Source: an uncultured virus (IMG/VR IMGVR_UViG_3300037067_004081)
Taxonomy: Duplodnaviria > Heunggongvirae > Uroviricota > Caudoviricetes
Length of the DNA stretch: 64,000 bases
Reading direction: 5' to 3' (one strand)
Virus record (IMG/VR): IMGVR_UViG_3300037067_004081
Positions within the stretch are counted from its first letter, which is position 1. Every line of letters starts with the position of its first letter. The notes beneath the pieces are model-generated. The model saw only the letters and a program-made list of their open reading frames with translations. It searched no databases and was not told the DNA's origin. The position numbers and the translations under genes were made by a program. Below, in pieces: positions 1,097 to 40,392 of this stretch.

Positions 1097-2062
1097 ATGT
1101 ACATTCTTGGGGCAGGATTGGCTGGGTGTATTGCTGGCATTCTGAATGGTGATGCGGTGATCCTAGAGAAGGCCAAATCAGCAGATGAAATCCCAGCCCA
1201 CAAAGCGCTGCTCAGATTCAGATCTGACAAGATTGCCCGAATAGCAGGAGTGGAATTTGACAAGGTGGTTGTCAGGAAGTCCATATGGTATGATGGCAAG
1301 GAGTATCGCCAGCCAACAATCCGATTTGCCAACATGTATTCAAGAAAGGTAAGCAATGGATATTTTGAGCGCTCCATCCTGAATCTGAATGATGCAGAGC
1401 GCTGGATTGCTCCAGACAACTTCCATGAGATACTGCTGCAACGATGCAAGCATCAGATCCAATATGGCAGTCAGGTTTCTTATATAAATGAGAACAAGAT
1501 AACAGTTGATGGCTCTGGACTCATGTATCTGGACCGAGCAGGAAGCGCAGTCATCAGCACTCTTCCTCTTCCATTCGTTTGCAAGCTGCTAGGCATCGAA
1601 ACAGAGCTGAAGTTTGAGCAAAAGCCTATCTGTGTCAGGCGATTCAGATTGGCCAACTGCAATCTATATCAAACCATATATTATCCTGCACCAGACTTCT
1701 CTGTGTATCGAGCATCCATCATAAGGGACAACCTGATCATTGAATATTTTGAAGACAGAAGTGATGCTGGTGAGATTGATATTATATTTAATAATTTTGG
1801 TATCAATCCAGCGGATATAATATCAACAGCAGGAAGGGTATCAAAGCAGCAAGGGAAGATATCCCCAGTTGATGACAGGATGCGAAAGGAATTGATTTTC
1901 AAAATGTCCGTTGAAAGAGGTGTCTACAGCCTGGGCAGATTCGGAGTTTGGCGCAACATCCTTCTTGATGATGTTTATGAAGATGTTCTGCAGATTCGCC
2001 GCATGATTGGAAAAACAGATTATGATAACAAACTTGCCTCTATGAAAGGAGACTCACAGTGA
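1097..2062 (+). CDS. FAD-dependent oxidoreductase (UDP-galactopyranose-mutase/HemY-like fold)
   Basis: YILGAGLAG...ILEK Rossmann motif; C-terminal SLGRFGVWR FAD motif; ATG 1097 after AAGGA. Confidence 0.8.
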   Translation: MYILGAGLAGCIAGILNGDAVILEKAKSADEIPAHKALLRFRSDKIARIAGVEFDKVVVRKSIWYDGKEYRQPTIRFANMYSRKVSNGYFERSILNLNDAERWIAPDNFHEILLQRCKHQIQYGSQVSYINENKITVDGSGLMYLDRAGSAVISTLPLPFVCKLLGIETELKFEQKPICVRRFRLANCNLYQTIYYPAPDFSVYRASIIRDNLIIEYFEDRSDAGEIDIIFNNFGINPADIISTAGRVSKQQGKISPVDDRMRKELIFKMSVERGVYSLGRFGVWRNILLDDVYEDVLQIRRMIGKTDYDNKLASMKGDSQ

Positions 2063-2907
2063 AGATAGTTGAACCAACAGTTGAAATAATAAACGCAACA
2101 CCGAATGCTCTGGAGCTGATGTTGCTCACCAAGTCCACCAGATTGAAAGGTGGAGCAGGATTGGCAGAGATCACCAGCTGGCCGATGGGAAAGAAGCTTT
2201 CTGAATTGGCCTACATGAAGGACACCATCAAGTCTTCATGGGAGTTTGTTGACTATGTGTTCCTGATCACAGGAGTCAGCAGGGTGTTCACTCATCAGTT
2301 TGTCCGCACTCGAACAATGGCTGGGGTTGATGATCCTGCCTTTGGTGCTCCAGAAGGGAATGCAGCAGTGGCCAGCTTTGCTCAGGAAGCCCAGAGAACC
2401 ATTGATGCATCTGACAACGGCTTCTCTATTCCGAATGGGGCCAAGCTGGCCCCAGTCTATGAGAATGCATATTTCATTGCCAATGAAGAATACAAGGCTG
2501 CGTTGGCCTCTGGTGAGAATTATCAGGATGCCAGGTCAATCCTTCCGAATGCCATCACCACCTCCATCATGGCCAAGATCAGTCTGCGGGTGCTCAGTGA
2601 TATGGCCAATGTTCGGCTGTGCACCAGAGCACAAGGAGAATATCAGAAGGTATTCAGAATGATGCGGCAGGCAGTATATCAGCTGCATCCCTGGACAGAA
2701 GGATGGATTGATGTATATTGCGTCAACCATGGCAGCTGCTGTTTCCCGCGATATGCCAAGTGCCCTATTCAGGCGCACACCTTCAATCCTGAAACCGGAG
2801 TTGCCTGTGATGGCCGATTGCCATACAACCGGAATGAACTGCGCAAATTCTGGGAGAAGACCATACATGAAGCCAATCCTGTGGCCAAAGATGGGAGGAC
2901 ACAATAA
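2059..2907 (+). CDS. thyX: Flavin-dependent thymidylate synthase (ThyX)-like protein, divergent active site
   Basis: WEFVDYVFLITGVSRVFTHQFVRTR, DARSILP, RLCTRAQGE; signature altered to RTR-x20-SFAQEAQR. Confidence 0.85.
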   Translation: MKIVEPTVEIINATPNALELMLLTKSTRLKGGAGLAEITSWPMGKKLSELAYMKDTIKSSWEFVDYVFLITGVSRVFTHQFVRTRTMAGVDDPAFGAPEGNAAVASFAQEAQRTIDASDNGFSIPNGAKLAPVYENAYFIANEEYKAALASGENYQDARSILPNAITTSIMAKISLRVLSDMANVRLCTRAQGEYQKVFRMMRQAVYQLHPWTEGWIDVYCVNHGSCCFPRYAKCPIQAHTFNPETGVACDGRLPYNRNELRKFWEKTIHEANPVAKDGRTQ

Positions 2908-3515
2908 TGCCAGGCAAGGATGGGAAGTTTGTTGCTTGCATTGACTTTGATGGGGTGATAAGCCAGTACCATTCTTGGAAAGGTGTTGATGAATTTGAAG
3001 AGCCTGTTGCTGGAGTGGCACAGGCTCTTTCCCTTTTGAAGAGTCTTGGCTGGATTATCATCATAAATACTTCGCGGGTTGAATCGGCGCTGCTGAGAAT
3101 GTATTTGGAAGAGAATGACATCCCATTTGATCACATCAATGAACCTCACCCTGGGTGGCAGGATAATCCTTGCAATAATGGTAAGCCACCGGCTGATGTA
3201 TATATTGATGACAAAGCGCACAGATTCAATGGCAGCTGGGCAGACACGCTGCGTTGGATTCTTCTGTCTGATATCAGGAGATGGGAGAAAAAGAAAGGCA
3301 ATCACATCCAGCATCCCAGCCACTATAATAAGGGTGGGATTGAAGTTGTTGAAGCAATTGAGGCGTGGGAGTTGGGCTGGAACCTGTCCAATGTTGTCAA
3401 GTATGTAGTAAGGGCAAGACACAAAGGACAACGGGTTGTTGACCTGAAGAAAGCTGCAGAGTACCTGCGCCGTGAAATAGTTGCAGCAGAAATCGAAAAG
3501 GAGTTGAAAGACTGA
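2907..3515 (+). CDS. HAD-family phosphatase fused to DUF3310 (T7 gp1.7-like nucleotide kinase) domain
   Basis: DFDGVI and KPPADVYIDDKA HAD motifs; HPSHYNKGGIE...NVVKYVVRARHKG...DLKKA DUF3310 pattern. Confidence 0.8.
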   Translation: MPGKDGKFVACIDFDGVISQYHSWKGVDEFEEPVAGVAQALSLLKSLGWIIIINTSRVESALLRMYLEENDIPFDHINEPHPGWQDNPCNNGKPPADVYIDDKAHRFNGSWADTLRWILLSDIRRWEKKKGNHIQHPSHYNKGGIEVVEAIEAWELGWNLSNVVKYVVRARHKGQRVVDLKKAAEYLRREIVAAEIEKELKD

Positions 3516-4276
3516 TGAGAAGGCTTTGGATAATAACAGGAGCGACGGCTGGGCTTGGTCAGCAGATATTGGCCTACATACCTGTTGAGGATATTGTCTT
3601 GAGAATTGGCAAAACCCCAATAGAGAACAGGCCTGTGGAGCGGCAGCAGATAGTTGAACTGCAAGCGGATCTTGGATTGCCCAGTCTTGTTGATGTCAAA
3701 CTTCAGCAGGCTTTTGATGAACTGTTGTGTACCAACATTGAAGTCAAACCGGCTGTGCTTATCAACTGTGCGGCAGAGAATCTAATTACACCAACCAGAT
3801 TTATTGAGGCTGATGACTTCGAAAGGATATTGAATGTCAATGTGGTTTCTCCTGCATTGATTGCTCGAACAATCCTGCATCGAGTCTGGAGGCCAGACAG
3901 TCTGGATCAATTTGTTGTTGTCAATATTGGATCCAATGCAGCAAAGGGTGCAGGTGCACATAGTCTGGCGTATGTGGCCAGCAAGCATGCACTCACTGGT
4001 GTTACAAGATCACTGGCCAGAGATTATGCTGGGCAGGCTATAATATTTCAGGTGAACTTTGGTAAGCTCGAAGGCACCAGGATGACCAATTATATTGATC
4101 AGCAGCAGGCAAAGCTAAAGGGAACATCTGTTGCTGAAGAGAGGTTGAGGCAGTCAAAGAGTTGGGCAGGTGGCATAGAGATATCGCTTGATGCAGCTGC
4201 CAACTTTGTTATGAATCTTATCTCTGATCCAGGAATCAGACAATTCAATGGAGGTATTTTTGACTATGGTTGCTGA
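3515..4276 (+). CDS. Short-chain dehydrogenase/reductase (SDR)
   Basis: ITGATAGLG, INCAA, NIGS, YVASK. Confidence 0.85.
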   Translation: MRRLWIITGATAGLGQQILAYIPVEDIVLRIGKTPIENRPVERQQIVELQADLGLPSLVDVKLQQAFDELLCTNIEVKPAVLINCAAENLITPTRFIEADDFERILNVNVVSPALIARTILHRVWRPDSLDQFVVVNIGSNAAKGAGAHSLAYVASKHALTGVTRSLARDYAGQAIIFQVNFGKLEGTRMTNYIDQQQAKLKGTSVAEERLRQSKSWAGGIEISLDAAANFVMNLISDPGIRQFNGGIFDYGC

Positions 4277-5075
4277 AAAAATAAAGATCCTTATTCTATT
4301 TGGCGGAGCAAGGCCAAACTCCATCGGCGCTGCAATCGCAAGGGCATTTGTCGATACAGACAAGTGGGCAGTTCACCTATTCGACAAGCCTGAAGTTGTC
4401 AAGGCTGAAAGCTGGGTGAATGATTATCCTGCAATAGTTATGCACAAATGCGATCTGCTGCGTGTTACAGATATCTTTGATGCCATCCAGTTGGTGGAAT
4501 CTTATGCCAATGATGATCATGAATTGGCAGGAATGATATATGCTGCAGGATTCAACCGGATCAATGCGGTGGTGGATTACCAACTTGATGATTTCGAAAA
4601 GACCATGCACCTGAATGTTACAGCTCCATTCCTCTGTATGCAGGCTGTGGTGAGACGTTTCACCAAAACAACTCCATCAGGAAAGCCATTCATCTATACC
4701 ATTCTGGGATCACAGACGGCATACATTGCCAAGACTCGCACAGCACCGTATGGAGCCAGCAAGGCAGCAGTCAACCACCTTGCAGCCTGTATGCACCGTG
4801 AACTGGCACCGGCTGGGTATCGGGTGAATGTCCTCAACTTTGGTCCTGTGCTTGATACTGACATGGATGTTATCACCCAGGATGAGCTGAAGCGGCAACG
4901 CGGTTGGGGCAAGGATGAATACCTGCATGAGTTGACAAAGAACATTCCTATCAAGCGCTTCACCAAGCCTGAAGAGATTGCCACACTGGCATTGTTCCTT
5001 CAGGAGCATCCTGAAGTTGGTGAGTTGTTTGGTGGTCGTGGTCTTAATTTTGACGGAGGTCAACTCCAAGGATAG
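4266..5075 (+). CDS. Second SDR oxidoreductase
   Basis: GGARPNSIG, YAAG, YGASK, RVNVLNFGPVLDT, PEEIA...FDGG; ATG 4266 after GGAGG. Confidence 0.85.
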   Translation: MVAEKIKILILFGGARPNSIGAAIARAFVDTDKWAVHLFDKPEVVKAESWVNDYPAIVMHKCDLLRVTDIFDAIQLVESYANDDHELAGMIYAAGFNRINAVVDYQLDDFEKTMHLNVTAPFLCMQAVVRRFTKTTPSGKPFIYTILGSQTAYIAKTRTAPYGASKAAVNHLAACMHRELAPAGYRVNVLNFGPVLDTDMDVITQDELKRQRGWGKDEYLHELTKNIPIKRFTKPEEIATLALFLQEHPEVGELFGGRGLNFDGGQLQG

Positions 5076-5080
5076 GAAGT

Positions 5081-5617
5081 TTGATGTTGTTTATATATGC
5101 CTTGATTGATCCAAGAGATAAATCAGTCAAATATATTGGTGTATCTAAGGATGTCAGGAGAAGATACAAAGAGCACTTGGCAGACTTTAGATACACCAAG
5201 AAGGCTGCTTGGATAAGAAAGATGAAAAGACTTGGTTTGGTCATAAAAGTGAAGTTGATTGAAATATGTACCAATAAAAATTGGAAATCAAGGGAGAGAT
5301 ATTGGATAAAATATTATAGCAATAATAAACTTGTCAACCTTACAAAAGGTGGAGAAGGAATATTTGGATATAGGCACTCTCAAAAAACAAAGGATAGAAT
5401 AGGAAAGGCTTCTCTTGGCGTAAAGAGAAGTGATGAGACTAAAGAGAAGCTGAGAGTTGCTGCTTTGAATAGCTGGTCAGATGATAGTTTCAGAGCAAGG
5501 CAAATTCAGAAGCTTATTGGTAACAAAAGAGGCAAGGGAAGAAAAGGAATCAAACACACAGAGGAATCGAAACAAAAGATGAGAGATTCAATAGCAAGGA
5601 GAAATAAATGCCACTAG
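5081..5617 (+). CDS. Free-standing GIY-YIG homing endonuclease with NUMOD3-like repeats
   Basis: IYALIDPRD...YIGVS...RRYKEH, ERYWI, NLTKGGEG, HTEESKQKM; AT-rich relative to neighbours. Confidence 0.85.
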   Translation: MMLFIYALIDPRDKSVKYIGVSKDVRRRYKEHLADFRYTKKAAWIRKMKRLGLVIKVKLIEICTNKNWKSRERYWIKYYSNNKLVNLTKGGEGIFGYRHSQKTKDRIGKASLGVKRSDETKEKLRVAALNSWSDDSFRARQIQKLIGNKRGKGRKGIKHTEESKQKMRDSIARRNKCH

Positions 5618-8600
5618 ATTTTGTTCATCTCCATTGTCATTCGCAATTTTCTATATTGGATGGCATTTGTAAAGTAACTGCCTTAGTTGCCAAGGCAAAA
5701 GAATTCGGAATGAAGGCTCTTGCTATCACTGATCACGGCAATGTTGATGGGGCAGTCAAATTCTATAAGGAATGCAAGAAGGCAGGCATCAAGCCTTTGG
5801 TTGGCTCTGAACTATATTGGGTGGATGAATTCGAAAAAAGCAAAGACATGAAGAGGTATCATGTGCTGGTGTTGGCCAAGAACTTCAATGGCCTGCGCAG
5901 CATAATGAAAGCCTTGACTGTTGCTCACCAGCAACAATTCTATTATCGGCCACTAGTAACATTTGATCAGGTGCTGGGCCTTGAGGATGTAGTTGTGATG
6001 ACTGCCTGTGCTTCTGGAGTCTTGGCCCATCCAGAATTTGAAGCAAAAGCAAAGAGCCTATACAGGAGATTTGGCAAGAACTTCTTTTTTGAGACCCAGC
6101 CTTGGCTGAAATTTCCTCCACAGGCTCTGGTGTATCAGAGAGCAATCCAGCTGATGAAAAAATCTGGTATTCCAATCATCGCCACCAATGATGTTCACTA
6201 TCTCAATAAGGATGAATACCTGGCCCATGAGGTGGCATTGGCAATCGGAACACACAAGCTGATGTCTGATAAGGACAGATACAAATTTGATGTGAGAGGA
6301 CTGCACCTGAGAACGGCTGCAGAGATGTATGAGACACTGATTGCAGAAGGTGCTGAAAAGAAGCTTGCCGGAATGATGGTGAATTCAAGTCTGATGGTTG
6401 CTGATAGAATTGACTTCACTATGGACAAGGTTGAAGTTGATCTGCCAATTCCTCATAGATTCAGATCCAATAAACCAAATACAAAGATCCTAGAAGACTT
6501 GGCCTGGGCAGGAATGCAGAAGAGAGGATTGACCAAAAAGAAGGAATATGTTGACCGGCTGAAACACGAATTGAATGAAGTCATCACTCTTGGTTTTGCA
6601 ACATATTTCCTTATATTGGCTGATGTCATCTGGTGGTGCAGGGAGAATGATCTGATGGTGGGCCCAGGAAGAGGGTCAGTTGGCGGCAGCATTCTGGCAT
6701 ATTGCCTATTCATCACAGAGGTTGATCCACTCCAGTATGGCCTATCATTTGAGCGCTTCATAAGTCCAGGCCGAATTGATTTGCCTGATATAGATGTTGA
6801 CTTCCAAGATGACAGAAGGGAAGAAATTGTCAGCTATTTCAGAGGCCAATATGGTGATGAGAATGTTCTGCAGGTAAGAACCTTCAATGAAATGCACGGA
6901 AGACAAGCATTGCGTGATGTGGCCAGAGTGTTCAGTGTTCCTGTTGAGGAAGTAGGGAAAGCAGCAAAGGCGATTGTCAAGCGCAGTGGTGGTGATGCTC
7001 GTGAGGATTATTCTATTGAGGATGCATTCACATTGTTTGAAGAGTGCAAGGCTTTTGCCAAGAAGTATCCAAAGGTGGTAAAGGTTGCCCAATCCCTAGA
7101 AGGGATTACAAGGCAGGGTGGTATCCATGCTGCTGGTGTTGTGATATCTGACAAGCCTCTGTATGATGGCCAGCGCTGTGTAGTGATCAGTGCCAAGGAT
7201 GGAGTGCAGTCAATCAACTGGGACAAAAAGGACTTGGATGACTTTGGCCTGATGAAGCTGGATGTGCTTGGCCTTTCCACCTTGACTGTTCTGCACAGGG
7301 CAAAGGAGTTGATAGAGAAGCATCATGGCAATACCAAGATTGTATTCGAGAATATCAACTTGGCTGATAAGAAAGTGATATTTGAATTCAACAGAGGCAA
7401 CACCATTGGTGTGTTCCAATTTGGCACCCCAGGTTTGGGGTCATATTGCAGAGAGATTGGGGTCAAATGCTTTGATGATCTTGTTGACATCAATGCACTG
7501 TGGAGGCCAGGGACACTCAAATCAGGTATGACAGCTGAGTTCAAAGAAATCAAGAATGGCAGAAAGGGTGTCACCCCAGTATCGGAATATTATGACAACA
7601 TCACCAAGGCAACCCTGGGCATCATGCTCTATCAGGAGCAGATCATGCAGGTGTTATATCAGGGTGCTGGTATTGGGTGGAGAACAGTTGACACAATTCG
7701 CAAGGCGATATCCAAGAGCGAAGGCAATGAGAAAATTGCCGGATTCAAAAAGGAGTTCACAGAAGGGTGTGCCAAGCTGGGCACCATGGCAGAGGATGAG
7801 GCTGCAGCAGTATTTGACAAGATGGTGTTCTTTGGTTCATATGGCTTCAACAAATCCCACGCTGTGGCATATACCAAAATTGGATTCTGGACTATGTGGC
7901 TGAAGGTCTATTATCCAACAGAGTTCTATTGCTCACTGATAAACTTTGCCACCCAGGATAAGCGGATGGAATATGTTGATGATGCTCGAAAGAATGGTAT
8001 CACAGTATTGCTGCCTGATGTAAACAAGTCAGGAAAGATCTGGACCATGGAAGGCCCAGGAGTAATCAGAGCAGGATTGTCAAGCATAACATCCATATCA
8101 GAAAGATCAGCAGAAGAAATCCTGAAGAGCAGATTGAAGCATTCTGACAGAATATTCCAAGACTTTGATTCATTCCTGAAGCAGGTGCCAAGGCGCACCA
8201 TCAATAAGAGAGTCATCCAGAATCTTGGCAAGAGTGGAGCATTGCGCAGTCTGGGCATCGGTGTTCTCTGCAGTCAGGATATTGATGCTGTGCTGAAAGG
8301 CAATTATGAGTTGGATGCTGATGAGAGCAACCCTGAGATTCTGCACATAGTTGGTGATGTAGTTGATTTCAGTCCATCAAGTGATCCGCTGTATAAGATA
8401 TCTGCCATTGTAGACAGGATCAAAAAGAAGATCCCATTGAATACCTTGAAGCAGGTAGCAGACAGAGAGGTGACAGGCGAATGCACCTTTGTCGGTAAGA
8501 TTGACAAGATCAAATTTTCATATCGGGATAAGGTATCAAAGGGAAGCAATGATCTTGGTGGAGCATATGGCAACTTCTATGATGGTAGTGACCATATGAT

Positions 8601-9387
8601 GATAACCTTTGACAACAGAGCCACCAATAGCGTTGATAACATAGATGTCAAAAAGAAGATTGAGACAGCAGAGGAATGTTGGGTGTTGATTCATGCAACA
8701 GTTGCACCGGATAAGAGAAGTGGCACCGATGTAAAGCTGTTGGTGCGCAAGATTGTGTTCCTAGAGGAACTGATTGGAGAGGTCAACTTGGCATTCTTTC
8801 CTGCAGCCAAAATAGGCTTCACATATAAAGGAGAAGGACAGCCATTTGATGATGAGGTGCTGGATTGTCATGAATGTACCTTGAGAGATACCTGTACAGC
8901 TCCAGTCAGGCCCAACAGAGGCAGGTTTGATGTCATGGTTGTAGCTGAAGCCCCAGGCAGAGAAGAAGATGAGCAGGGCATTGGACTCCTGGGGAAAGCA
9001 GGAAAGAATCTTTGGGATGAATTGGCCAAGTATCAGATCAAAAGAAACCTGCTGCACGTGAACAATGTGGTGAAGTGCCGACCACCAAACAACAAAATAC
9101 CTAACATCAACATGGCTCACAAATGTGCTTCTCTCTGGTTGGACAGAGAGATGGAGCAAATCAAACCACTGATTGTGTTGGCTGCTGGTGGTACAGCTGC
9201 TGACTATTTTATCAAGGATGCCAAGATCACAGAATTGAATGGCAAGGTTATTTGGAATGCCAAGCATTCGTGCTGGGTGGTATATTGTCTGCATCCGGCA
9301 AGCATTATATATGAGCAGTCAAACAAAGAAGCATTCTCGAAAGCTATTGGGACATTTGCAAACCTGATGTACTGCATCTATAAATAA
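5608..9387 (+). CDS. dnaE: DNA polymerase III alpha (DnaE-like) with C-terminal family-4-like uracil-DNA glycosylase domain
   Basis: PHP HLHCHS/TDHG; GRGS; PDIDVDF; KLDVLGL; YGFNKSH; C-terminus CHEC...AEAPG..EED...NVVKCRPP...LHPA. Confidence 0.93.
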   Translation: MPLDFVHLHCHSQFSILDGICKVTALVAKAKEFGMKALAITDHGNVDGAVKFYKECKKAGIKPLVGSELYWVDEFEKSKDMKRYHVLVLAKNFNGLRSIMKALTVAHQQQFYYRPLVTFDQVLGLEDVVVMTACASGVLAHPEFEAKAKSLYRRFGKNFFFETQPWLKFPPQALVYQRAIQLMKKSGIPIIATNDVHYLNKDEYLAHEVALAIGTHKLMSDKDRYKFDVRGLHLRTAAEMYETLIAEGAEKKLAGMMVNSSLMVADRIDFTMDKVEVDLPIPHRFRSNKPNTKILEDLAWAGMQKRGLTKKKEYVDRLKHELNEVITLGFATYFLILADVIWWCRENDLMVGPGRGSVGGSILAYCLFITEVDPLQYGLSFERFISPGRIDLPDIDVDFQDDRREEIVSYFRGQYGDENVLQVRTFNEMHGRQALRDVARVFSVPVEEVGKAAKAIVKRSGGDAREDYSIEDAFTLFEECKAFAKKYPKVVKVAQSLEGITRQGGIHAAGVVISDKPLYDGQRCVVISAKDGVQSINWDKKDLDDFGLMKLDVLGLSTLTVLHRAKELIEKHHGNTKIVFENINLADKKVIFEFNRGNTIGVFQFGTPGLGSYCREIGVKCFDDLVDINALWRPGTLKSGMTAEFKEIKNGRKGVTPVSEYYDNITKATLGIMLYQEQIMQVLYQGAGIGWRTVDTIRKAISKSEGNEKIAGFKKEFTEGCAKLGTMAEDEAAAVFDKMVFFGSYGFNKSHAVAYTKIGFWTMWLKVYYPTEFYCSLINFATQDKRMEYVDDARKNGITVLLPDVNKSGKIWTMEGPGVIRAGLSSITSISERSAEEILKSRLKHSDRIFQDFDSFLKQVPRRTINKRVIQNLGKSGALRSLGIGVLCSQDIDAVLKGNYELDADESNPEILHIVGDVVDFSPSSDPLYKISAIVDRIKKKIPLNTLKQVADREVTGECTFVGKIDKIKFSYRDKVSKGSNDLGGAYGNFYDGSDHMMITFDNRATNSVDNIDVKKKIETAEECWVLIHATVAPDKRSGTDVKLLVRKIVFLEELIGEVNLAFFPAAKIGFTYKGEGQPFDDEVLDCHECTLRDTCTAPVRPNRGRFDVMVVAEAPGREEDEQGIGLLGKAGKNLWDELAKYQIKRNLLHVNNVVKCRPPNNKIPNINMAHKCASLWLDREMEQIKPLIVLAAGGTAADYFIKDAKITELNGKVIWNAKHSCWVVYCLHPASIIYEQSNKEAFSKAIGTFANLMYCIYK

Positions 9388-9666
9388 ATATTCTCATTCA
9401 CATTGGTGATGGGAATAATATTAAAGGAGAAAGTCATGGGCTTGGATAGTTCTATTGAATTGCTGGGAAGGGCACAATCAAAGTACAATACCTTTTTGGC
9501 AAACATAGCAGTCGAAAGGCCTGTTGGAAAAGGAAGAGGCATCAACAAAAGAAACAGGCTCAAGATTGAAGCAACATTGCGCCTTGCTACTGTTAGGCAG
9601 ACTGATGACAGACTGGCTGGGATGCGAATTATTCACAGCTTGCGCTCAATCGAGTTCAACCAATAA

Positions 9667-10245
9667 ATGGAGGTGAATTGTATGGCAGGAATCCCACCGC
9701 GTCCCAATCAAAACAAAGGGGCAGCAGGTCAAACCAATAATCCATATATGGGTGTCACCATAGATGGAAATCAGATCCATGATGCCTTGATCATCACCCC
9801 AGACATCAGCACAGAGATGAGCAAGCAAGCGGCACTGTTCAGTCGTTATGCGATTGCTGCTGTATGGGCAAGAGACAAGATGGAAAGGCAAAAGACTGCG
9901 CTTTCAATCTTGGAAGCTGATCTGGATGCGGATGCCAGACTCACCTTGACCAACCGCGGTGACAAGGTTCGGGAAGCTTCTGTTGAGGCTATCATCCACC
10001 AGGATGAGAAGTGGCAAGCTGCCAACGAAAAGATTCTTGAGGCGAAAAGAGAGTTGGGCATATTGGAAGCAGCTGCTGGTGCATTCCAGCAACGTGCTAT
10101 GATGTTGTCTGGCCTTGGCGCAATCAAGCGGCAGGAAATGGAGCAGGAACTGAGCAGCTTTACAAAGAACCAGGCAGGGAAAGCTACACAAGCTGTTCAG
10201 AATAACTTCGCCAAAAATGCTCCCAAGCCTGGTGGAGGTTTCTAG
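9667..10245 (+). CDS. UvsY-like recombination mediator (coiled coil)
   Basis: Helical protein with EASVEAII...AFQQRAMML pattern; upstream of SSB-like and RecA genes. Confidence 0.55.
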   Translation: MEVNCMAGIPPRPNQNKGAAGQTNNPYMGVTIDGNQIHDALIITPDISTEMSKQAALFSRYAIAAVWARDKMERQKTALSILEADLDADARLTLTNRGDKVREASVEAIIHQDEKWQAANEKILEAKRELGILEAAAGAFQQRAMMLSGLGAIKRQEMEQELSSFTKNQAGKATQAVQNNFAKNAPKPGGGF

Positions 10246-10246
10246 T

Positions 10247-10402
10247 ATGAATGTGCAATGGTATTTGGCCATTGTACTTGCTTTTGCACTCCTTCTCTTT
10301 ATATTTGCACGCGTGATTATAAAGGGAATTTCCAACGGCATTGGCACATTTTTGGCCAAGGTAGCAAATAGGAAAAACAAAACTGACGAAAGGCAATATT
10401 GA
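10247..10402 (+). CDS. Small membrane protein
   Basis: GGAGG then MNVQWYLAIVLAFALLLFIF hydrophobic stretch. Confidence 0.5.
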   Translation: MNVQWYLAIVLAFALLLFIFARVIIKGISNGIGTFLAKVANRKNKTDERQY

Positions 10403-10403
10403 T

Positions 10404-11612
10404 ATGGCGGATAAAAGTTTGTCGGATTATGCCAATGATGCCAGACGGCAGGCTGATGAGGAAAGAGGAAAGAAGGATTTCTTCCAAACTCCGAATAATA
10501 TTGAAGCGCACATCAGGCTGCTTGAATGGCCAGGACACGTGCCTTGCTGGATCATGGGGCATGTTCACTTTTTGAAGACTGCAGAGGGCACCAAGGTGAT
10601 GACCTGTGGTGATGAAAACTGCTATTCTTGCGGCAGGTTGTCAGAGTACAGCCACAGTCAGAACAAGCAGGATTTGATCTTTGCAAAGGATACATCACGC
10701 AGGCTGCGCATTAACATGTTTCTGATTGACATGGACAATCGCAGCAAAGGTCCACAGCTCTGGGAACCAAAGAACACCCAGAATTGCTCCACCTGGACAT
10801 CCCTGCTGGCTCTGTTTACCAACCAGGATGACTACGGCGCAAAGGTCTACAAGTTCAATGAAGGAAGGGTCATCAGCCTCACAGTTGCAAAAGAGATGAG
10901 GAAGATGAAAACTGGGCAGCAGGAAATCAACATTCAGAAAAGCCTCATTCCTGGTGCCAGACCATTCCCAATTCAAATCCGACCCAGCGCTGATGGCCAC
11001 GGATATTATCAAGACCCTGAAGGCAACTACCAAATCAAATACCCAATGCCTGATGGCAGGATGGTGGCTTTCAAACTTCCTGATCTTGGTGCCCAAATCC
11101 CTATTTATGATGAGAACTTCCACCGTGAGTGCTGGGGTGATGCGCCTGCAGAATCTGCTGGTGAATATGTTGCTGCTGGCGAGCCTGAAGGTGGCTGGGA
11201 AGGTCAACAGGCTGCTGGTGGCGATGCGCCATGGGAAGAAACTGATGCTGGCCAGGTTGATGCTGCAACAGGTGAATTGATGGATGAGCCTGAGCCTTCA
11301 GATGGATCTCAAGCAGCAGAAGAAGATTGGGGAGCACAAGCTGAACCAGAAACAGGAGAGGATTGGGGAGCAGCTGAACCGGCTGCAGATCCTCCACCGG
11401 CTATTCCAAGACCACCGGCATCAAGCAGACCGCCAGCAAGACCAAGTGCACCTCCACCGGCTGCGGCAGCTGCACCACCAAGAAGGCCACCTGCTCCACC
11501 GGCATCAACAAGCAGGCCACCGGCAAGGCCAAGCGCTCCACCACCACCTCCAAACAGAAGAGGTGGAGTTCAACCGCCACCTGCAGCAAGGAAGCCTGCA
11601 GGGAAGAAATAG
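10404..11612 (+). CDS. Probable gp32-like single-stranded DNA-binding protein with acidic and Pro/Arg-rich tail
   Basis: IRLL...HVHF...TC...CYSC Zn motif; position between UvsY-like and RecA genes. Confidence 0.6.
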   Translation: MADKSLSDYANDARRQADEERGKKDFFQTPNNIEAHIRLLEWPGHVPCWIMGHVHFLKTAEGTKVMTCGDENCYSCGRLSEYSHSQNKQDLIFAKDTSRRLRINMFLIDMDNRSKGPQLWEPKNTQNCSTWTSLLALFTNQDDYGAKVYKFNEGRVISLTVAKEMRKMKTGQQEINIQKSLIPGARPFPIQIRPSADGHGYYQDPEGNYQIKYPMPDGRMVAFKLPDLGAQIPIYDENFHRECWGDAPAESAGEYVAAGEPEGGWEGQQAAGGDAPWEETDAGQVDAATGELMDEPEPSDGSQAAEEDWGAQAEPETGEDWGAAEPAADPPPAIPRPPASSRPPARPSAPPPAAAAAPPRRPPAPPASTSRPPARPSAPPPPPNRRGGVQPPPAARKPAGKK

Positions 11613-20632: not shown

Positions 20633-21745
20633 GCTATCCAATTGTCACACAGCACACGCACGCCTGTGTGTATTGTGGCAAGCGACAAATCTGTGAATAT
20701 CCTCCAAAGCCTTGCCTGAGAGTTGGGCCAAGAGTCTGCAGAGATTGTATCGGGCTGGATAAAGATCACCCAAAGATGAAATTGTATCATGTAAGAAAGC
20801 CACCCCAGAAGGTGGAATTCATCAGTGGCGAGACTCTTGCGCAGGTGGCAGAGCGATGCCGCAATGATAAGCATCATGGTTGCTTTTGTGGTTGTCACAT
20901 AGCAGAAATTGACGGCAATGATTGGACTCCAAAGGAGAGATGATATGGGATATCAATCAGGGAATGGTATGGATTCACCTTCAGCAGGCAAAGACAACAA
21001 TGGTGAAGATATTGATTATTCATCAAGAACCCCAACAGAAAGAGCTAAAAAATAAAAGAAGAAAATTGAATTGGCTGTTCGGCATGTTGAGTGCAAGAAA
21101 TATGATCCAAACAAACACAAGGATGCACCATTCATGACAGAGGTTGACAGAGGTGATAATTGTGTCACCCTGCGCTGTCTCAAGTGCAAGGATGAAATCA
21201 CCATAGAGGGCAGGGTGGATCTGATTCATTGTGCCTGGATTGATTCATCGAGAATAACTGGCAAGAAGAAGATTGCTGTTGTTTGTGGCAATCGTGATGA
21301 CTGGAACTATTGGCAACCAGAAAAAGGGGTTGGTGTCAAAAGAGACAACAACCGGATGATTCTTGACTGCCTTGAAACTACTTACTATGGGATTACAAGA
21401 GCACGGCAGGCTTGGGGAACAGAATTTGATTCTATGATGATTGTAGGTAAGCCTAGCAGTATCCTGATTGATGTTGTTCAGAGTAGGCTGCGATGAAATA
21501 TATTGTGCTTGATGATGGGGAAAGGGAGTTGCCAATCATCTTTCCTGATGATATGAATCATATTGATATAGCAACAGCCATCACCAATCTGGATGAGTAT
21601 AAGAGCTGCAGGCTGGTTGCTGGAGGGTTCATTCAGGTGGGGCCATCACTCTGCTCAGGGTCATCCAAGACTTTGGCAATCAACAGCAGGCCTGAAGACC
21701 AAGCACTGATAAATGGTTATGATTATTCACATGGCATCAAGGATT

Positions 21746-36221: not shown

Positions 36222-36420
36222 TCAATCTTGATAGCTTCAATGCAGACAAAGGCCAACCATATGCCAATTGGGAGAAGGTGGGCCAAGAGGCAATCTGTTT
36301 TTGCTGTAGCAGTCCAATCAAAATCAGTGTATCTGCTCTGCCAACAACGATGGGTGAAGAGTTCACCTATGAATGCTGGTGTGGGCAGGTGCACCAATTC
36401 AAAAGAGAGGATGTTTCATA

Positions 36421-36750
36421 ATGGAGTTGAATGAATACCAACATCGAGCAAGAGCAACCGCTGTGTATCCCAGAATTGGTCAAAATCTTCAGTATCCTGT
36501 GCTTGGCCTTGCAGGTGAGGCTGGTGAAATATGCAATAAGGTAAAGAAGATTGAAAGGGATTGTGGAGGGAAGATCACCCCAGAGATAAGAGAGAAGATT
36601 CTCAAGGAAGTTGGTGACACACTCTGGTATGTTTCCATGATCTGCCAGGAATTGGCAGCGAATCTGGATGATGTTGCACGCGACAACCTTATGAAGCTGC
36701 TGGACAGGCAATCACGCGGTGTGCTGAAGGGTTCAGGTGATGAGAGATGA
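36421..36750 (+). CDS. MazG-like nucleotide pyrophosphohydrolase
   Basis: LGLAGEAGE...KEVGDTLWY...NLMKLLDR. Confidence 0.9.
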   Translation: MELNEYQHRARATAVYPRIGQNLQYPVLGLAGEAGEICNKVKKIERDCGGKITPEIREKILKEVGDTLWYVSMICQELAANLDDVARDNLMKLLDRQSRGVLKGSGDER

Positions 36751-37373
36751 GTGAAACGGTATCCGTCATCATTGCGACATTTGGAGACAGAAAGAACTGG
36801 GACAGGATTGTACAGAGGGCAATCAATTCTGTCATCACTCAATCAGTCAGACCCAACCAATTGATCAGAAGCCACGGCAAGGATTTGCAGCAGGCCAGGA
36901 ATGAGGCTGTCAAGAAGTCATATTCAGACTGGCTTTGCTTCCTTGATGCTGATGATGAGCTTGAACCTGGCTACATAGAAGCGATGTTGAAAGGCCAAGG
37001 TGATTTGAGATACCCTATGGTGAGGTATCTTGATGTTGAGCAATTCAACATTGATCACCGGCTGACTGATCCGGTTGCGCTCAAAGAGATTCACATATTG
37101 GATGGCAACTGGATGGTCATTGGGACATTTGTCAGGCGTGAACAATTCCTGCGTGTCGGTGGCTTCCCAGACTATTCAGCATATGAGGATTGGGCGCTGT
37201 GGATCAAGTGTTGGATTGATGGTGCCCAATGGCAACTTTGTAATGACGCCATCTATCGAGTATACAGGAGCAAATCCGGCAGGAATCATATGCCTGGGAA
37301 TGTTGCCCAGAAGCTTCATGATGACATCTCAGGATACTTCAGGCCTATTGCCAAAGAAAGAGGATTGATATGA
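36747..37373 (+). CDS. Family 2 glycosyltransferase
   Basis: VSVIIATF, ARN, CFLDADD, GGF...EDWALW. Confidence 0.9.
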   Translation: MSETVSVIIATFGDRKNWDRIVQRAINSVITQSVRPNQLIRSHGKDLQQARNEAVKKSYSDWLCFLDADDELEPGYIEAMLKGQGDLRYPMVRYLDVEQFNIDHRLTDPVALKEIHILDGNWMVIGTFVRREQFLRVGGFPDYSAYEDWALWIKCWIDGAQWQLCNDAIYRVYRSKSGRNHMPGNVAQKLHDDISGYFRPIAKERGLI

Positions 37374-38182
37374 AAGACATGGTTGTTGGTGCAGCATCTG
37401 GGTATGACTGGGCCAAGATTTCATCATGGGCAAACAGTCTTGATCAATGCGGCTTCACCGGACACAAGGTGATCCTCTATTATGGGTGGGATCAGGATTT
37501 CATTCGGCGTGCAACAAAGAGAGGTTATCAGGTTGTTGGCTGCTCTCAAAGGGAAAAGACTGTTCATGTTGACAGATTCTTGAAATTGGCGCTGCATCTT
37601 TCAACCCACAATGTTGTTGTCAATAGAGTGATGATCACTGACACCCGTGACATCATATTTCAAGGCAATCCATCAGACTGGCTTGATGAGAACCTCACCG
37701 GCGCTCAACAGCTCTGTGCAGTCACAGAGGGAATCAGATATCAGGATGAGCCTTGGGGTTCAGGAAATGTATTGGCAGGCTTTGGGCCCATATGGCTCAA
37801 GCAGCTTGCTGATAAGGTGATTGTCAATGCAGGCTGCATCTGCGGATATCAGGCGGACATGGACAGGTTGTTTTGGGCCTTGGTTCAGTTGGCATCCAGT
37901 GCAGCTATTCCTTTGGCTGATCAGTCAGCGCTGAATGTTTTGCTGGCAGATCCTGAATGGGCCCAGCGCATTAGGATATTTGAACCTGATGCTGGACTCT
38001 GTGCAAACCTTGGCACGCTGGCTGTTGATGAATTCAAGCCAAAGCTGGTGAGCCCACAGCCTACATGGGATGACAAAGGTGTTGTGTTTACATCTGAAGG
38101 CAAACCATTTATACTGGTTCATCAATATGACAGAATACCAGGCTTGAAAGAAAAGATCTGGAACAAATACTGGGAGGCATAA
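37370..38182 (+). CDS. GT-A fold glycosyltransferase-like protein
   Basis: MITDTRDIIFQGNP, NAG, DQSALN, VHQYDR. Confidence 0.75.
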   Translation: MKDMVVGAASGYDWAKISSWANSLDQCGFTGHKVILYYGWDQDFIRRATKRGYQVVGCSQREKTVHVDRFLKLALHLSTHNVVVNRVMITDTRDIIFQGNPSDWLDENLTGAQQLCAVTEGIRYQDEPWGSGNVLAGFGPIWLKQLADKVIVNAGCICGYQADMDRLFWALVQLASSAAIPLADQSALNVLLADPEWAQRIRIFEPDAGLCANLGTLAVDEFKPKLVSPQPTWDDKGVVFTSEGKPFILVHQYDRIPGLKEKIWNKYWEA

Positions 38183-38889
38183 TGATCAGAACAGGATTGA
38201 CAACAGACAAATCAAGAGTCTGCTTGCTATTGATCACGGATGGCAGGGCAGAGTGTATCGAGAAGACATTATTGTCATGGGCAGAGCAGCTTGATGGGGC
38301 ATTCACAGACTTCATTGTGGTGAATGACTCTGGTGATATGGAGTATGCCTGCTGGCTTGATCGCAAGCTGCCATACTTCACAAGGATACATCATCCAAGG
38401 CGATTAGGATTTGGTGAAACAATAAGAGATGCATGGGCCAACATTCCTGGTCACTGTGATTTCATCTTCCACCTTGAGGATGACTTCCTGCTCAATCGCT
38501 CATTCAAGCTGGATGACTGGATTGCTGTTCTGAAGGCCAACCCAGATGTCATATCCATCACAGCATATCGGCAACCGTGGTCACAGGCTGAAATATTTGC
38601 TGGTGGTTTCATCCCTATGCGCCCAGGCTGCTATCAAGACAAGAAATATGTTGGGGATAATGATGTCGAGTATGATGTCATCGAGCATACAAACAACTTC
38701 TCAACAAATCCCTGTCTATATCCAAGTTGGTTGACCAATATCGACTGGCCTGAAAGTCCAGAGAGTGAAGGCAAGTTTGGTTTTGTTTTGAAAGAGTTGA
38801 ACCCCAATTCGAAATACCTGCTCTGGGGTAAGACAACAGATGAACCGTTGGTGCACCACTTTGGTGCAAGAAAGGGCACAGGCTATTAG
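38182..38889 (+). CDS. Family 2-like glycosyltransferase
   Basis: IVVNDS, FIFHLEDDF, FSTNPCLY, VHHFG. Confidence 0.8.
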   Translation: MIRTGLTTDKSRVCLLLITDGRAECIEKTLLSWAEQLDGAFTDFIVVNDSGDMEYACWLDRKLPYFTRIHHPRRLGFGETIRDAWANIPGHCDFIFHLEDDFLLNRSFKLDDWIAVLKANPDVISITAYRQPWSQAEIFAGGFIPMRPGCYQDKKYVGDNDVEYDVIEHTNNFSTNPCLYPSWLTNIDWPESPESEGKFGFVLKELNPNSKYLLWGKTTDEPLVHHFGARKGTGY

Positions 38890-38890
38890 C

Positions 38891-39541
38891 ATGATGATTG
38901 TTGTGGTCACTTCCCGCAGACCATTGATGTGGGGGAATGTTCTTGATAATATCAACCGGCAATCAAGAAAGCCTGATGCTCTCATATTTGTCGCACACAG
39001 AACAAATGTTGTACCAAGACTGATGCTGTCAACTTGCATCGGCAATGGTATCCCCAGCACATTCTTCAGAGCCAATGATTCCTTGAGTTATACCTTTGCA
39101 GCCGAACAAGGGTTTAATGAGGCTGCAAAGCTGGACTCAGAAGGGATGATGTGCAACTTTGATGATGATGACTTCTATGGCAAGGATTATTTGAAAGAAA
39201 TAGAAGATTTGCACAAGGTGTTTCCAAGTGCAGGCATCATCGGGAAAGCTGGATACTTCATGTGGCAATTTGGCAAGAAGGTTGAACCAACCAGAGAAGG
39301 ATACAAAGATATTGAGCCCATGTCAATAGTTGATTGGGTTGCTGGACCAACAATCTCAATCAATATCAAGACTTGGATTGAGAGGCCTGATTTCAGGCAT
39401 GATCATCTCAAGCCATATGCTGATGCCGCCATCATCAGTGTGGCAAATACTTTTAGAATTCCAATCAGGACAACAGGTGATCAGAACTTCCTGCTGCAGC
39501 GCTATTCAAATAAGGAGCATAAGCACACATGGCCAATGTAA
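38891..39541 (+). CDS. Family 2-like glycosyltransferase
   Basis: TSRRP...RQ, CNFDDDDFYGKDYL, GPTI. Confidence 0.7.
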   Translation: MMIVVVTSRRPLMWGNVLDNINRQSRKPDALIFVAHRTNVVPRLMLSTCIGNGIPSTFFRANDSLSYTFAAEQGFNEAAKLDSEGMMCNFDDDDFYGKDYLKEIEDLHKVFPSAGIIGKAGYFMWQFGKKVEPTREGYKDIEPMSIVDWVAGPTISINIKTWIERPDFRHDHLKPYADAAIISVANTFRIPIRTTGDQNFLLQRYSNKEHKHTWPM

Positions 39542-40392
39542 AACAGGTTTGGGCTGTTGGCCTTGTTCTGAATGAGGCTGACATTATTGAGTACACGCTC
39601 AAGAATTTTGAGGCCCAGGGTGTCAATGGGATCATTGTGCAGGATAATGGTTCAACAGATGATACCATCAAGAAGCTTGAGCACTTTCAAAACACAACAG
39701 GTATCAAGGCCACTCTGATATTAGAAGGAAAGAACACCGGATATTTTCAGAGCAGGAACATGACTGCACTGGCTCACTTCGCAGCATCGCTTGGGGCAGA
39801 ATACATCATCCCATTCGATGCTGATGAGCTGTGGTATGCTCCTGGTCATGAACGGCTGGCTGATCTGATAAGAGAAGCGGATGCAGGCTGTATTCATGCT
39901 GAGCAATACTTCTATTATTCAACCAGAGAAGATATTCAGCATGAAATGAACCCATACAAAAGGATTGTATGGCGCACCAAGGAAGTCAGGCCATGGAAGA
40001 AAGTCTGCTTCAAATGGTTTCCTGGTGCTCACATTGGTGGTGGCAATCACTCGCTGCAGGATGCTGATGGCAATGAGGTGTCAAGAGGAAGATACATTGA
40101 CATCAAGATTGGCCATTTCCCATGCAGGAGTTTTGAGCAGATGCTGGACAAGGTTGTCAGGCATGGAAGGTCTATGGACCTGCAACACCCAGATGATCCC
40201 ACATGGGGCGGTGATGGGCCAGCTCACAACTATCTATATCGCAAGTTTGTCAATGAAGGTGCAGCAGCTCTGAAGCAGATCTGGGAATGGGGTGACAAAC
40301 AAACAGACTATTCAGGATTCTGCCTATCCAGAAATTACAAATCATTAGGGCTGGTGAATTCTCCAGCTCCATATAAAGAGGTGACAAGATGA
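39529..40392 (+). CDS. Glycosyltransferase (GT2_4-like), paralog A
   Basis: NEADII, DNGSTDDT, IPFDADELW, GNH, HFPCRS. Confidence 0.85.
   Translation: MANVKQVWAVGLVLNEADIIEYTLKNFEAQGVNGIIVQDNGSTDDTIKKLEHFQNTTGIKATLILEGKNTGYFQSRNMTALAHFAASLGAEYIIPFDADELWYAPGHERLADLIREADAGCIHAEQYFYYSTREDIQHEMNPYKRIVWRTKEVRPWKKVCFKWFPGAHIGGGNHSLQDADGNEVSRGRYIDIKIGHFPCRSFEQMLDKVVRHGRSMDLQHPDDPTWGGDGPAHNYLYRKFVNEGAAALKQIWEWGDKQTDYSGFCLSRNYKSLGLVNSPAPYKEVTR

Follow-up and report, generated by a model that had tools for sequence, protein, structure and literature searches.

A stretch of 64,000 nucleotides from an uncultured tailed phage (IMG/VR record IMGVR_UViG_3300037067_004081; Caudoviricetes), referred to here in its whole length as the window, carries near its start a block of plus-strand genes (positions 1097–9387) that raises a question about the chemistry of the phage DNA. 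A divergent variant of the thymidylate synthase ThyX lies between a flavoprotein and a protein that joins a HAD-type domain to a DUF3310 domain; two short-chain dehydrogenases/reductases (SDR1 and SDR2) follow, and the block ends with the phage's own replicative polymerase, DnaE, which bears a uracil-DNA glycosylase (UDG) domain. What would such a set of enzymes make, and is the product destined for the DNA? An earlier note on the same DNA, written from its letters alone, had proposed an undescribed pathway of thymidine replacement coupled to its own polymerase. The analysis described here identifies the block as one version of a modular cassette that is widespread among phages and that lies here beside the phage's own DnaE gene. 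With a probability of roughly one half, the predicted proteins and the chemistry of cultured relatives suggest that the cassette serves to modify thymidine in the DNA of the phage, beyond merely supplying thymidylate (dTMP).

A widespread cassette beside DnaE

A profile scan of IMG/VR yielded 430 stretches encoding relatives, of which the best 80 loci were kept; one of them (L008) is a contig nearly identical to the window. The ThyX variant lies downstream of the flavoprotein gene, on the same strand, in 79 of these 80 flavoprotein loci, and the single locus without it (L034) is on a contig that ends approximately 580 bp past the flavoprotein match. This arrangement is far beyond chance, and the conserved neighborhood that the earlier note had anticipated is thus very strong. 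A DnaE match is present in 55 of the 80 loci, many of the contigs being cut short, and an SDR1-like gene is located between ThyX and DnaE in 33; DUF3310 and the UDG fusion were each found in three loci, and two adjacent SDRs in two. When the open reading frames (ORFs) of 79 loci and the window were clustered (80 sources), a HAD domain and/or a DUF6378-like helical domain, fused or adjacent, was encountered in 61 sources and an RNase T exonuclease in 48. Between ThyX and the exonuclease gene, some lineages carry additional genes: VOC/glyoxalase proteins in 19 of the 80 sources (L026 and others), methyltransferases in nine (L010, L011, and others), and radical-SAM/SPASM proteins in six (L017 and others). 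The variability of these add-on genes suggests a lineage-specific chemistry, as far as it can be predicted from the protein families.

The same core occurs in cultured phages. In a tblastn search of 50,697 phage records, the flavoprotein was matched in 362 records (Pseudomonas, 292; Escherichia, 27; Serratia, 9; Rhizobium, 8; Xanthomonas, 6; and others) and the ThyX variant in 432, with counts for Pseudomonas, Escherichia, Serratia, and Xanthomonas equal to those of the flavoprotein. The order flavoprotein, ThyX, HAD protein, (SDR), exonuclease, and DnaE is found in the Pbunavirus phages 14-1 and F8, in Wifcevirus FEC19, and in Carpasinavirus; the set of ThyX, flavoprotein, and DnaE that the earlier note had associated with PB1-like phages is therefore real and extends beyond them. 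The Vibrio podophage PVA7 has the same run with no SDR, and in the jumbo Rhizobium phage Y65 (207 kb) the flavoprotein, ThyX, and HAD-like genes are scattered among others. The window shares the hallmarks of the Pbunavirus cassette, namely a flavoprotein of phrog_4828, a same-strand ThyX with the Phe and RTR substitutions described below, and an adjacent phage DnaE. The only sizeable proteins common to 14-1 and the window are the flavoprotein (35% identity), ThyX (38%), and DnaE (32%); therefore, the core travels as a unit between phage types that are not related. A small ORF at 21490–21735 with 34% identity over 101 aa to gp15 of 14-1 is the sole other protein that the two phages have in common. 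By megablast, the 8.3-kb block as a whole had no match in the 50,697 phage records.

Within the window, the first five genes of the cassette are tightly packed: the flavoprotein gene (1097–2062, +) is followed by those of the ThyX variant (2059–2907, +), the HAD-DUF3310 fusion (2907–3515, +), SDR1 (3515–4276, +), and SDR2 (4266–5075, +), with overlaps of 4 nt (GTGA), 1 nt (TAATG), 1 nt (TGATG), and 11 nt in this order and with purine-rich ribosome sites ahead of the genes. Five translationally coupled genes had been described in the earlier note, and these genes and their successive overlaps are real. Some features are specific to the clade of the window: in or next to the cassette, a second SDR and the fusions HAD-DUF3310 and DnaE-UDG; in the head-gene region, a cluster of MazG and family 2 glycosyltransferase (GT2) genes. 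The UDG fusion is shared by two close relatives, G004 and G003, the latter of 81 kb and rated complete.

The ThyX variant

The ThyX variant (2059–2907; 282 aa from a GTG start) matches the Thy1 domain PF02511 with 88.3 bits (cut-off, 24.8) over profile positions 46–191 of 191, and it scores 66.7 bits against the NCBIfam equivalog TIGR02170, under the cut-off of 87.9. In an alignment with Mycobacterium tuberculosis ThyX made via the family profile, Arg83, Arg85, Arg113, Arg159, Arg177, and Arg186 correspond to R95, R97, R107, R172, R190, and R199 of the M. tuberculosis enzyme and are invariant in 50 relatives. Canonical ThyX proteins carry the motif RHRxxSxxxxSxR. In the variant, RHR is replaced by RTR, which is followed by an 18-aa insert and then by S-F-A-Q-E-A-Q-R, and the canonical motif with its His is not present. 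Relative to the M. tuberculosis enzyme, the His of the LEH segment, which we take to be the folate-stacking His53 of Thermotoga maritima ThyX, is replaced by Phe63; the Ser and Tyr of the SQRY segment are replaced by Ala and Thr, and His194 and His203 by Asp and Arg, respectively.

These changes are traits of the family and are not specific to the window. Phe is present at the LEH His position in 66 of 69 variant ThyX ORFs, and the middle residue of RxR in the 69 is Thr in 39, Ser in 13, Asn in 1, and His in 2, with 14 unmatched. At the C-terminus, 26 of the 69 proteins share a Cys-rich extension (C..G.C.FPR....KCP, with a further Cys in RLC); it is seen in the window, L005, and L006 and is absent from the versions of Rhizobium phage Y65 and Vibrio phage PVA7. 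Judging by its Cys pattern, this tail may form a metal or Fe-S site.

The flavoprotein

The partner of the ThyX variant, a protein of 321 aa (1097–2062, from an ATG; an alternative TTG start is located at 1079), has no match in Pfam or NCBIfam, and its PHROG family, phrog_4828, is labeled "unknown function." A phmmer search of the PDB returned nothing useful for it (no UDP-galactopyranose mutase, UGM), for ThyX, or for HAD-DUF3310. The N-terminus bears a GxGxxG motif, and a model built from an alignment of 60 sequences (predicted local distance difference test, pLDDT, 92.7) has UGM as its closest fold match, so that both a flavin adenine dinucleotide (FAD)-binding Rossmann motif and the UGM fold are present. 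UGM grips the diphosphate of UDP with Arg and Tyr residues of its active site. By sequence, the family profile picks up the UGM of Aspergillus fumigatus weakly (E 0.03) in a match that spans two motifs, YFP..YRA(T/S)I and GRF..WR. In this match, for which E is only 0.03 and the UGM residue numbers were counted by hand from the construct numbering, the invariant Tyr195, Arg205, and Arg281 of the flavoprotein align with Tyr317, Arg327, and Arg447 of the fungal enzyme; Y317 and R327 mutants of the latter are named in the titles of PDB structures. With its 321 aa, the flavoprotein lacks the full three-domain size of UGM (365–510 aa) as well as membership of the family at the sequence level. Thus, it is a shortened, remote UGM relative with the UDP-galactopyranose-mutase/protoporphyrinogen-oxidase fold and cannot be shown to be a mutase. 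Its family has many members: of 2543 candidates, 894 proteins matched at E ≤ 1e-5, and there are at least 1206 representatives at 50% identity; none of the 120 members listed has an informative name.

Modified thymidines in cassette-bearing phages

Chemistry has been measured in phages that carry the core of the cassette. The virion DNA of F8 resists enzymes with TG in their sites, and novel nucleosides of 362 and 390 Da appear in DNA digests of F8 and 14-1 together with a T:A ratio below 1, approximately a quarter of the T being replaced, according to a recent preprint (Yee et al., 2025, preprint; PMC12191111). There, the two nucleosides are read as thymidine derivatives carrying a tetrose sugar alcohol (tetritol type) and a cyclic aldopentose (PMC12191111). 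The earlier note had supposed a sugar- or polyol-derived chain on the base. This class of modification has been measured in F8 and 14-1 (PMC12191111), and for the phage of the window it is a prediction from genes alone. The description of the pathway as undescribed likewise holds for the biosynthetic genes, since a literature search retrieved no paper that assigns genes to the Pbunavirus modification or links ThyX or thymidylate synthase to the modification; it does not hold for the modified thymidines themselves, which are known from F8 and 14-1.

Which enzymes of these phages could make such nucleosides? A Pfam scan of 32 non-structural proteins of 14-1 revealed no glycosyltransferase, dioxygenase, or kinase; beyond core replication, the recognizable enzymes are those of the cassette (ThyX variant, flavoprotein, and HAD protein) and a MazG-like protein. 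The cassette is therefore the only recognizable candidate enzymology. A comparison of 14-1 with F8, whose modifications differ, was made for 24 proteins of the replication region, and 18 of them are 92–99% identical. The outliers are the HAD protein, which has indels and only 79% identity, four small ORFs on either side of ThyX (78, 78, 82, and 89%), gp67 in its N-terminal half, which adjoins the flavoprotein, and gp71 (57%; 434 aa, no family). This divergence may fit determinants of the 362- and 390-Da forms in or near the cassette, weakly so because only the replication region was compared. We infer the link between genes and product in Pbunavirus from these observations.

The HAD-DUF3310 fusion and the two SDRs

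The third gene of the cassette (2907–3515) encodes a protein of 202 aa with an HAD domain at approximately residues 1–125 and a DUF3310 domain at 134–187. The earlier assignment stands without qualification for the DUF3310 half (Pfam, E 2e-16), and for the HAD half it is weak by hidden Markov model (E 0.005) and is backed by motifs and a structural model. DUF3310 is also found in gp1.7 of phage T7 (residues 122–184, E 4.5e-23), which aligns to the window protein at E 3e-5; the DUF6378-like helical domain of other cassettes has no relationship to the window DUF3310 by hhalign (probability 0.1). Seven proteins homologous to the HAD half were found, among which the four HAD motifs I–IV (DFDGV, NTSR, and GK..ADVYIDDK) are kept; one of them had already been annotated as a member of the NT5C (PF06941) deoxynucleotidase family. 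In the model, the initial 80 residues of the HAD half have block-mean pLDDT values of 63 to 94, and the top folds are weak matches (E 1e-3 to 2e-2) to 1xpj, GmhB, BT0820, and AfhF, the arabinose-1,5-bisphosphate phosphatase of phage HY126. The modeled fold suits a capless HAD phosphatase whose closest kin would be capless sugar-phosphate phosphatases.

SDR1 (3515–4276; 253 aa; PF00106, E 1e-17) and SDR2 (4266–5075; 269 aa from the ATG at 4266 after GGAGG, or 275 aa from 4248; PF13561, E 1e-26) are both classical SDRs, with the cofactor and Ser..YxxxK segments visible in their translations. In PDB and NCBIfam searches their matches are generic, with no specific subfamily. A threitol/galactitol dehydrogenase (GolD/DthD) was considered for SDR2, for which it is the best NCBIfam match, and was rejected at 100 bits, far under the cut-off of 286. 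The distributions of the two proteins differ. SDR1 was matched in 41 phage records by tblastn, including Wifcevirus, Myosmarvirus, and Carpasinavirus, and the matches that were checked adjoin ThyX and HAD genes inside the cassette; it is likely, on this similarity and context, that SDR1 is orthologous to the SDR that many other forms of the cassette contain. SDR2 was matched in 66 phage records, in unrelated contexts. Among the 80 IMG/VR loci, SDR1 and SDR2 are adjacent only in the near-identical contig and in L013, and L009 has a single SDR that is nearer to SDR2; single-protein scans of IMG/VR with SDR1 or SDR2 returned only the near-identical contig. The two SDRs had been regarded in the earlier note as an elaboration of the set. 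Because one SDR is common (33 of the 80 loci, and Wifcevirus, Myosmarvirus, and Carpasinavirus), only the second is an elaboration, and the first is a common member.

The DnaE-UDG fusion and the homing endonuclease

DnaE (5608–9387, +; 1259 aa) contains the PHP, palm, fingers, and HhH domains of the polymerase III alpha subunit (PF02811, PF07733, PF17657, and PF14579), followed at approximately nt 8929–9348 by a C-terminal UDG domain (PF03167, E 4e-18; TIGR00758, 103.3 bits with a cut-off of 125.3; Arch_udg, 108). The uracil-binding domain that the earlier note saw in DnaE thus exists and is probably of the family 4 type. Its translation shows AEAPG and HPAS segments and Cys pairs, which may be the catalytic and 4Fe-4S motifs. 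Among the 55 loci with a DnaE match, the UDG fusion occurs in three (L008, L009, and L013). Downstream of the polymerase, the order of genes for single-stranded DNA-binding protein, exonuclease, RecA, and SbcCD in Rhizobium phage RHph_N1_10 resembles that of the window, in which RecA is located at 11648, RusA at 13861, and SbcC at 16227.

Between SDR2 and DnaE lies a homing endonuclease gene (5081–5617, +; 178 aa) of the GIY-YIG/NUMOD3 type (PF01541, PF07460, and phrog_314), which had been overlooked in the earlier note. Its GC content is 0.356, compared with 0.44–0.50 for its neighbors, and it is present in one of the 80 related loci, which is the near-identical contig. This gene is a mobile insertion and stands outside the pathway; therefore, the operon is near DnaE and not, as had originally been stated, directly upstream of it. 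A paralogous GIY-YIG/NUMOD3 endonuclease (33% identical, E 2e-26) is encoded at 40389–40997, inside the glycosyltransferase cluster described in the next section.

The remainder of the window

The window is a single arm of an uncultured tailed phage, in which nearly all genes are on the plus strand. Public runs of groundwater and landfill metagenomes (three studies) contain the phage only in the form of assembled contigs. The structural genes comprise terminase, portal, scaffold, major head protein, and a tape measure of 1827 aa; the phage is siphovirus-like, because the window has no sheath gene and the tape measure is very long. No tRNA genes were found in the window. Upstream of the cassette, a hairpin resembling an intrinsic terminator (1038–1082, +) has a 13-bp stem, a 10-nt loop, and a U-rich tail; its predicted folding energy is −22.8 kcal/mol (z −3.7), with none of 200 shuffles equally stable, and it was not caught by a pattern scan because its loop exceeds 8 nt. 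This hairpin is the upstream boundary of the cassette unit and separates it from the gene at 235–1008. The protein of this upstream gene (257 aa) has N-terminal CxxC pairs and a Lys/Gly/Ala/Thr-rich tandem stretch, AAAKGKGKGAKATT, which occurs twice; it is kept in two close relatives (cluster f31) and matches no assigned family. At the other end, positions 60000–64000 contain only short ORFs on both strands, with a GC content of approximately 0.42 and an AT skew near zero, unlike the remainder.

In the head-gene region, Pfam and PHROG matches outline a possible accessory block (36373–43028, +) between the head-morphogenesis and scaffold genes. It includes a MazG-like pyrophosphohydrolase, at least four GT2 proteins, a galactosyltransferase-like protein, a methyltransferase-like protein, a homing endonuclease, and two ORFs of unknown function. 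The relatives G003 and G004 have five and four GT2 matches, respectively, and none was found in three other records searched, all of which are incomplete. It is possible that this block is linked to the cassette, and its targets could be virion proteins or DNA.

A proposed pathway

If the cassette tailors thymidine, its enzymes may act as follows. The ThyX variant would bind deoxyuridylate (dUMP) and flavin, as its retained arginines suggest, and would activate C5. Because the conserved His and Ser/Tyr positions are changed, it is proposed to yield a C5-functionalized dUMP, instead of or besides dTMP. On the strength of folds and of precedents in phage DNA glycosylation, the UGM-like flavoprotein is proposed to act on a nucleotide sugar or a phosphorylated sugar, the HAD domain to cleave off a phosphate group, and the SDRs to reduce a carbonyl or epimerize it; the DUF3310 domain, together with the HAD domain, may also curate the pool of deoxynucleoside monophosphates (dNMPs). 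DnaE would replicate the genome, and its fused UDG would remove deoxyuridine (dU) leaking from an enlarged dU pool, by analogy with the fusions of DNA polymerase and UDG in phages with modified T. Among such phages, polymerases of the A family that carry an active UDG as a fusion partner are the mark of a T-modified group, and they remove dU ahead of the fork (PMC13697223). The end product would be DNA in which a fraction of the thymidines bears a sugar or polyol, as in F8 and 14-1 with their homologous core.

A bolder variant of this scheme, which we regard as improbable, is that the ThyX variant and the flavoprotein jointly carry out a folate-independent transfer of carbon. ThyX and UGM both work via adducts at N5 of the reduced flavin, a methylene iminium in the former and a sugar C1 iminium in the latter. 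A flavin-bound, ring-opened sugar might then replace the methylene group of folate and be joined to C5 of dUMP, giving a polyhydroxyalkyl- or C-glycosyl-deoxyuridine with a C-C linkage that SDRs, a VOC enzyme, or the HAD phosphatase would trim lineage by lineage. With formula masses of 362.3 and 390.3, respectively, 5-(tetrahydroxypentyl)-dU and C-hexosyl-dU agree with the nucleosides reported from F8 and 14-1; mass cannot decide between C-C and O-linked structures, however, because the O-linked ether and glycoside isomers of 5-hydroxymethyldeoxyuridine (5-hmdU) weigh the same.

Alternative explanations

The cassette might instead serve ordinary nucleotide supply and hygiene: ThyX would make dTMP, HAD-DUF3310 would balance the pools, UDG would exclude dU, and the DNA would be canonical, while the flavoprotein and the SDRs would be redox helpers or unrelated auxiliary genes. 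Taken jointly, these assumptions form an explanation that we consider rather unlikely, and several findings speak for it or against the tailoring of thymidine. The Thy1 domain scores well over the Pfam cut-off, and the arginines that contact dUMP are all kept and invariant, which fits ordinary ThyX chemistry. All five cultured carriers checked have no ThyA and one Thy1 match each, the ThyX variant, which is thus their sole gene of the thymidylate synthase families and may do no more than make their dTMP; in each of the six cultured-phage records that were inspected, it is labeled as thymidylate synthase. DUF3310 is shared with the dTMP/dGMP kinase of T7, one HAD homolog is annotated NT5C, and the SDR and HAD assignments are generic. 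Approximately three quarters of the T of Pbunavirus is canonical and the modification is found in a TG context (PMC12191111); partial replacement in such a context implies a step that reads sequence on the DNA, and no enzyme of the cassette obviously supplies one. The purely pre-replicative route of the earlier note, in which a modified dUMP is phosphorylated and incorporated, is accordingly hypothetical, with at least one step probably acting on DNA. The words "thymidylate," "ThyX," and "flavin" do not occur in the text of this preprint, which assigns the modification to no biosynthetic genes (PMC12191111). None of the 41 records matched by SDR1 is from a Pseudomonas phage, and SDRs are therefore not needed for the modifications that were measured. 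In addition, Rhizobium phage RHph_N1_10 (L090) encodes a DnaE-UDG fusion (8115–11522) with no cassette upstream, which rules out this fusion as specific evidence of T modification. Nevertheless, nucleotide supply does not explain why the ThyX variant is almost always paired with a UGM-like flavoprotein (79 of 80 loci), why His is lost throughout the family, and why the score is below the equivalog cut-off; ThyX requires no extra flavoprotein or SDR, and the cassette-bearing Pbunaviruses have modified T with no other recognizable enzymes to make it.

A mixed function can also be envisaged, in which ThyX is ordinary and the remaining enzymes (flavoprotein, HAD domain, and SDRs) supply an activated sugar that is not meant for DNA and goes, for instance, to virion proteins via the GT2 enzymes or to the host envelope. 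The UGM-like fold and motifs, the sugar-phosphate-type HAD fold, and the SDRs would suit sugar-nucleotide metabolism, and the clade has four to five GT2 genes inside its head-gene region, an arrangement that is known from mycobacteriophages with glycosylated virions. The cassette, however, is part of the replication module, is translationally coupled to ThyX, and travels with DnaE across unrelated phage types; moreover, no glycosyltransferase was found among the 32 proteins of 14-1 scanned or in two more distant cassette contigs, both incomplete, and the flavoprotein therefore cannot generally serve a glycosyltransferase cluster. We regard a mixed function as quite improbable. It is more improbable still that the product is another modified base, or a protective metabolite or cofactor that acts against host defense and is not in the DNA. 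The VOC/glyoxalase, radical-SAM, and methyltransferase add-ons do attest to chemical diversity; a ThyX fold whose arginines for binding uracil and phosphate are intact nevertheless points to dUMP, and the only chemistry measured in carriers concerns thymidine (PMC12191111).

Implications

If thymidine is indeed tailored by the cassette, it would be the first route of DNA hypermodification founded on a ThyX-fold rather than a ThyA-fold enzyme, and it would provide a function for a flavoprotein family of at least 1206 clusters at 50% identity. Genes would be assigned to the Pbunavirus modification, which decides sensitivity to END nuclease in phages that are widely used for the therapy of Pseudomonas infections. 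The cassette would also become a genomic marker predicting modified DNA in many uncultured phages, and the lineage-specific additions (SDRs, DUF3310, the UDG fusion, and GT2 in the clade of the window; VOC, radical-SAM, and methyltransferase proteins elsewhere) would predict varied sugar or polyol decorations. Should the ThyX variant be an ordinary synthase, the finding would shrink to a conserved flavoprotein partner that is unexplained.

Comparison with known systems

The ThyX variant belongs to the same domain family as canonical ThyX (TM0449 of T. maritima and the M. tuberculosis enzyme; PF02511 and TIGR02170) and keeps its dUMP-binding arginines, but it differs in RTR, Phe63, the Ala and Thr of the SQRY segment, the Asp and Arg in place of His194 and His203, the insert, and the Cys-rich tail. 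T7 gp1.7, a nucleotide kinase, has only its C-terminal DUF3310 of 60 residues in common with the window protein, in which DUF3310 is fused to an HAD phosphatase domain; a kinase activity of the domain alone would be hypothetical. The fusion of a replicative polymerase with UDG, here in a phage suspected of T modification, is a likeness to the A-family polymerases of the T-modified phages SP-15, YerA41, and Carin-5 (Missoury et al., 2026; PMC13697223). By contrast, the polymerase of the window is of the C family (DnaE) with its UDG at the C-terminus.

The closest counterparts are F8 and 14-1, which have a homologous flavoprotein, ThyX, and DnaE in the same order and an HAD protein after ThyX. 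In Pbunavirus, however, the HAD domain is fused to a C-terminal domain different from DUF3310, a separate RNase T exonuclease gene is present, and DnaE has no UDG. Furthermore, no Pseudomonas record is among the SDR1 matches, and Pbunavirus is a myovirus whereas the phage of the window is siphovirus-like.

Hypermodified thymidines and repurposed homologs of thymidylate synthase are already known. The hydroxymethylases of T4 and SPO1, which act on deoxycytidylate (dCMP) or dUMP, belong to the ThyA family. Lee and colleagues are said to have described, in 2018, a 5-hmdU-based hypermodification in phages M6 and ViI that reportedly employs a ThyA-like dUMP hydroxymethylase, 5-HMUDK, and aGPT-Pplase. 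Phages that glycosylate their DNA encode sugar-preparing enzymes, among them the HAD phosphatase AfhF and, in Rhizobium phage RL38J1, a true UGM, and these work beside a repurposed ThyA homolog (PMC13326640). This homolog is a 5-hydroxy-dCMP synthase, found with arabinose or galactofuranose donors in RB69, DLP3, HY126, and RL38J1 (PMC13326640). The 74 ORFs of the window, which leaves approximately 16 kb of a roughly 80-kb genome outside, were searched with Pfam and PHROGs and include no ThyA homolog, nucleotide-sugar pyrophosphorylase, or conventional P-loop dNMP kinase; as regards a 5-hmdU-type pathway, neither a ThyA-fold hydroxymethylase nor a DNA 5-hmdU kinase is among them. In the literature searched, no pathway is described that starts from a ThyX-fold enzyme in partnership with a UGM-like flavoprotein. 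The common logic of the ThyA-family pathways is a thymidylate synthase homolog repurposed at C5 together with enzymes that curate the nucleotide pool and prepare the sugar; these pathways use the ThyA fold, whereas the cassette of the window uses the ThyX fold.

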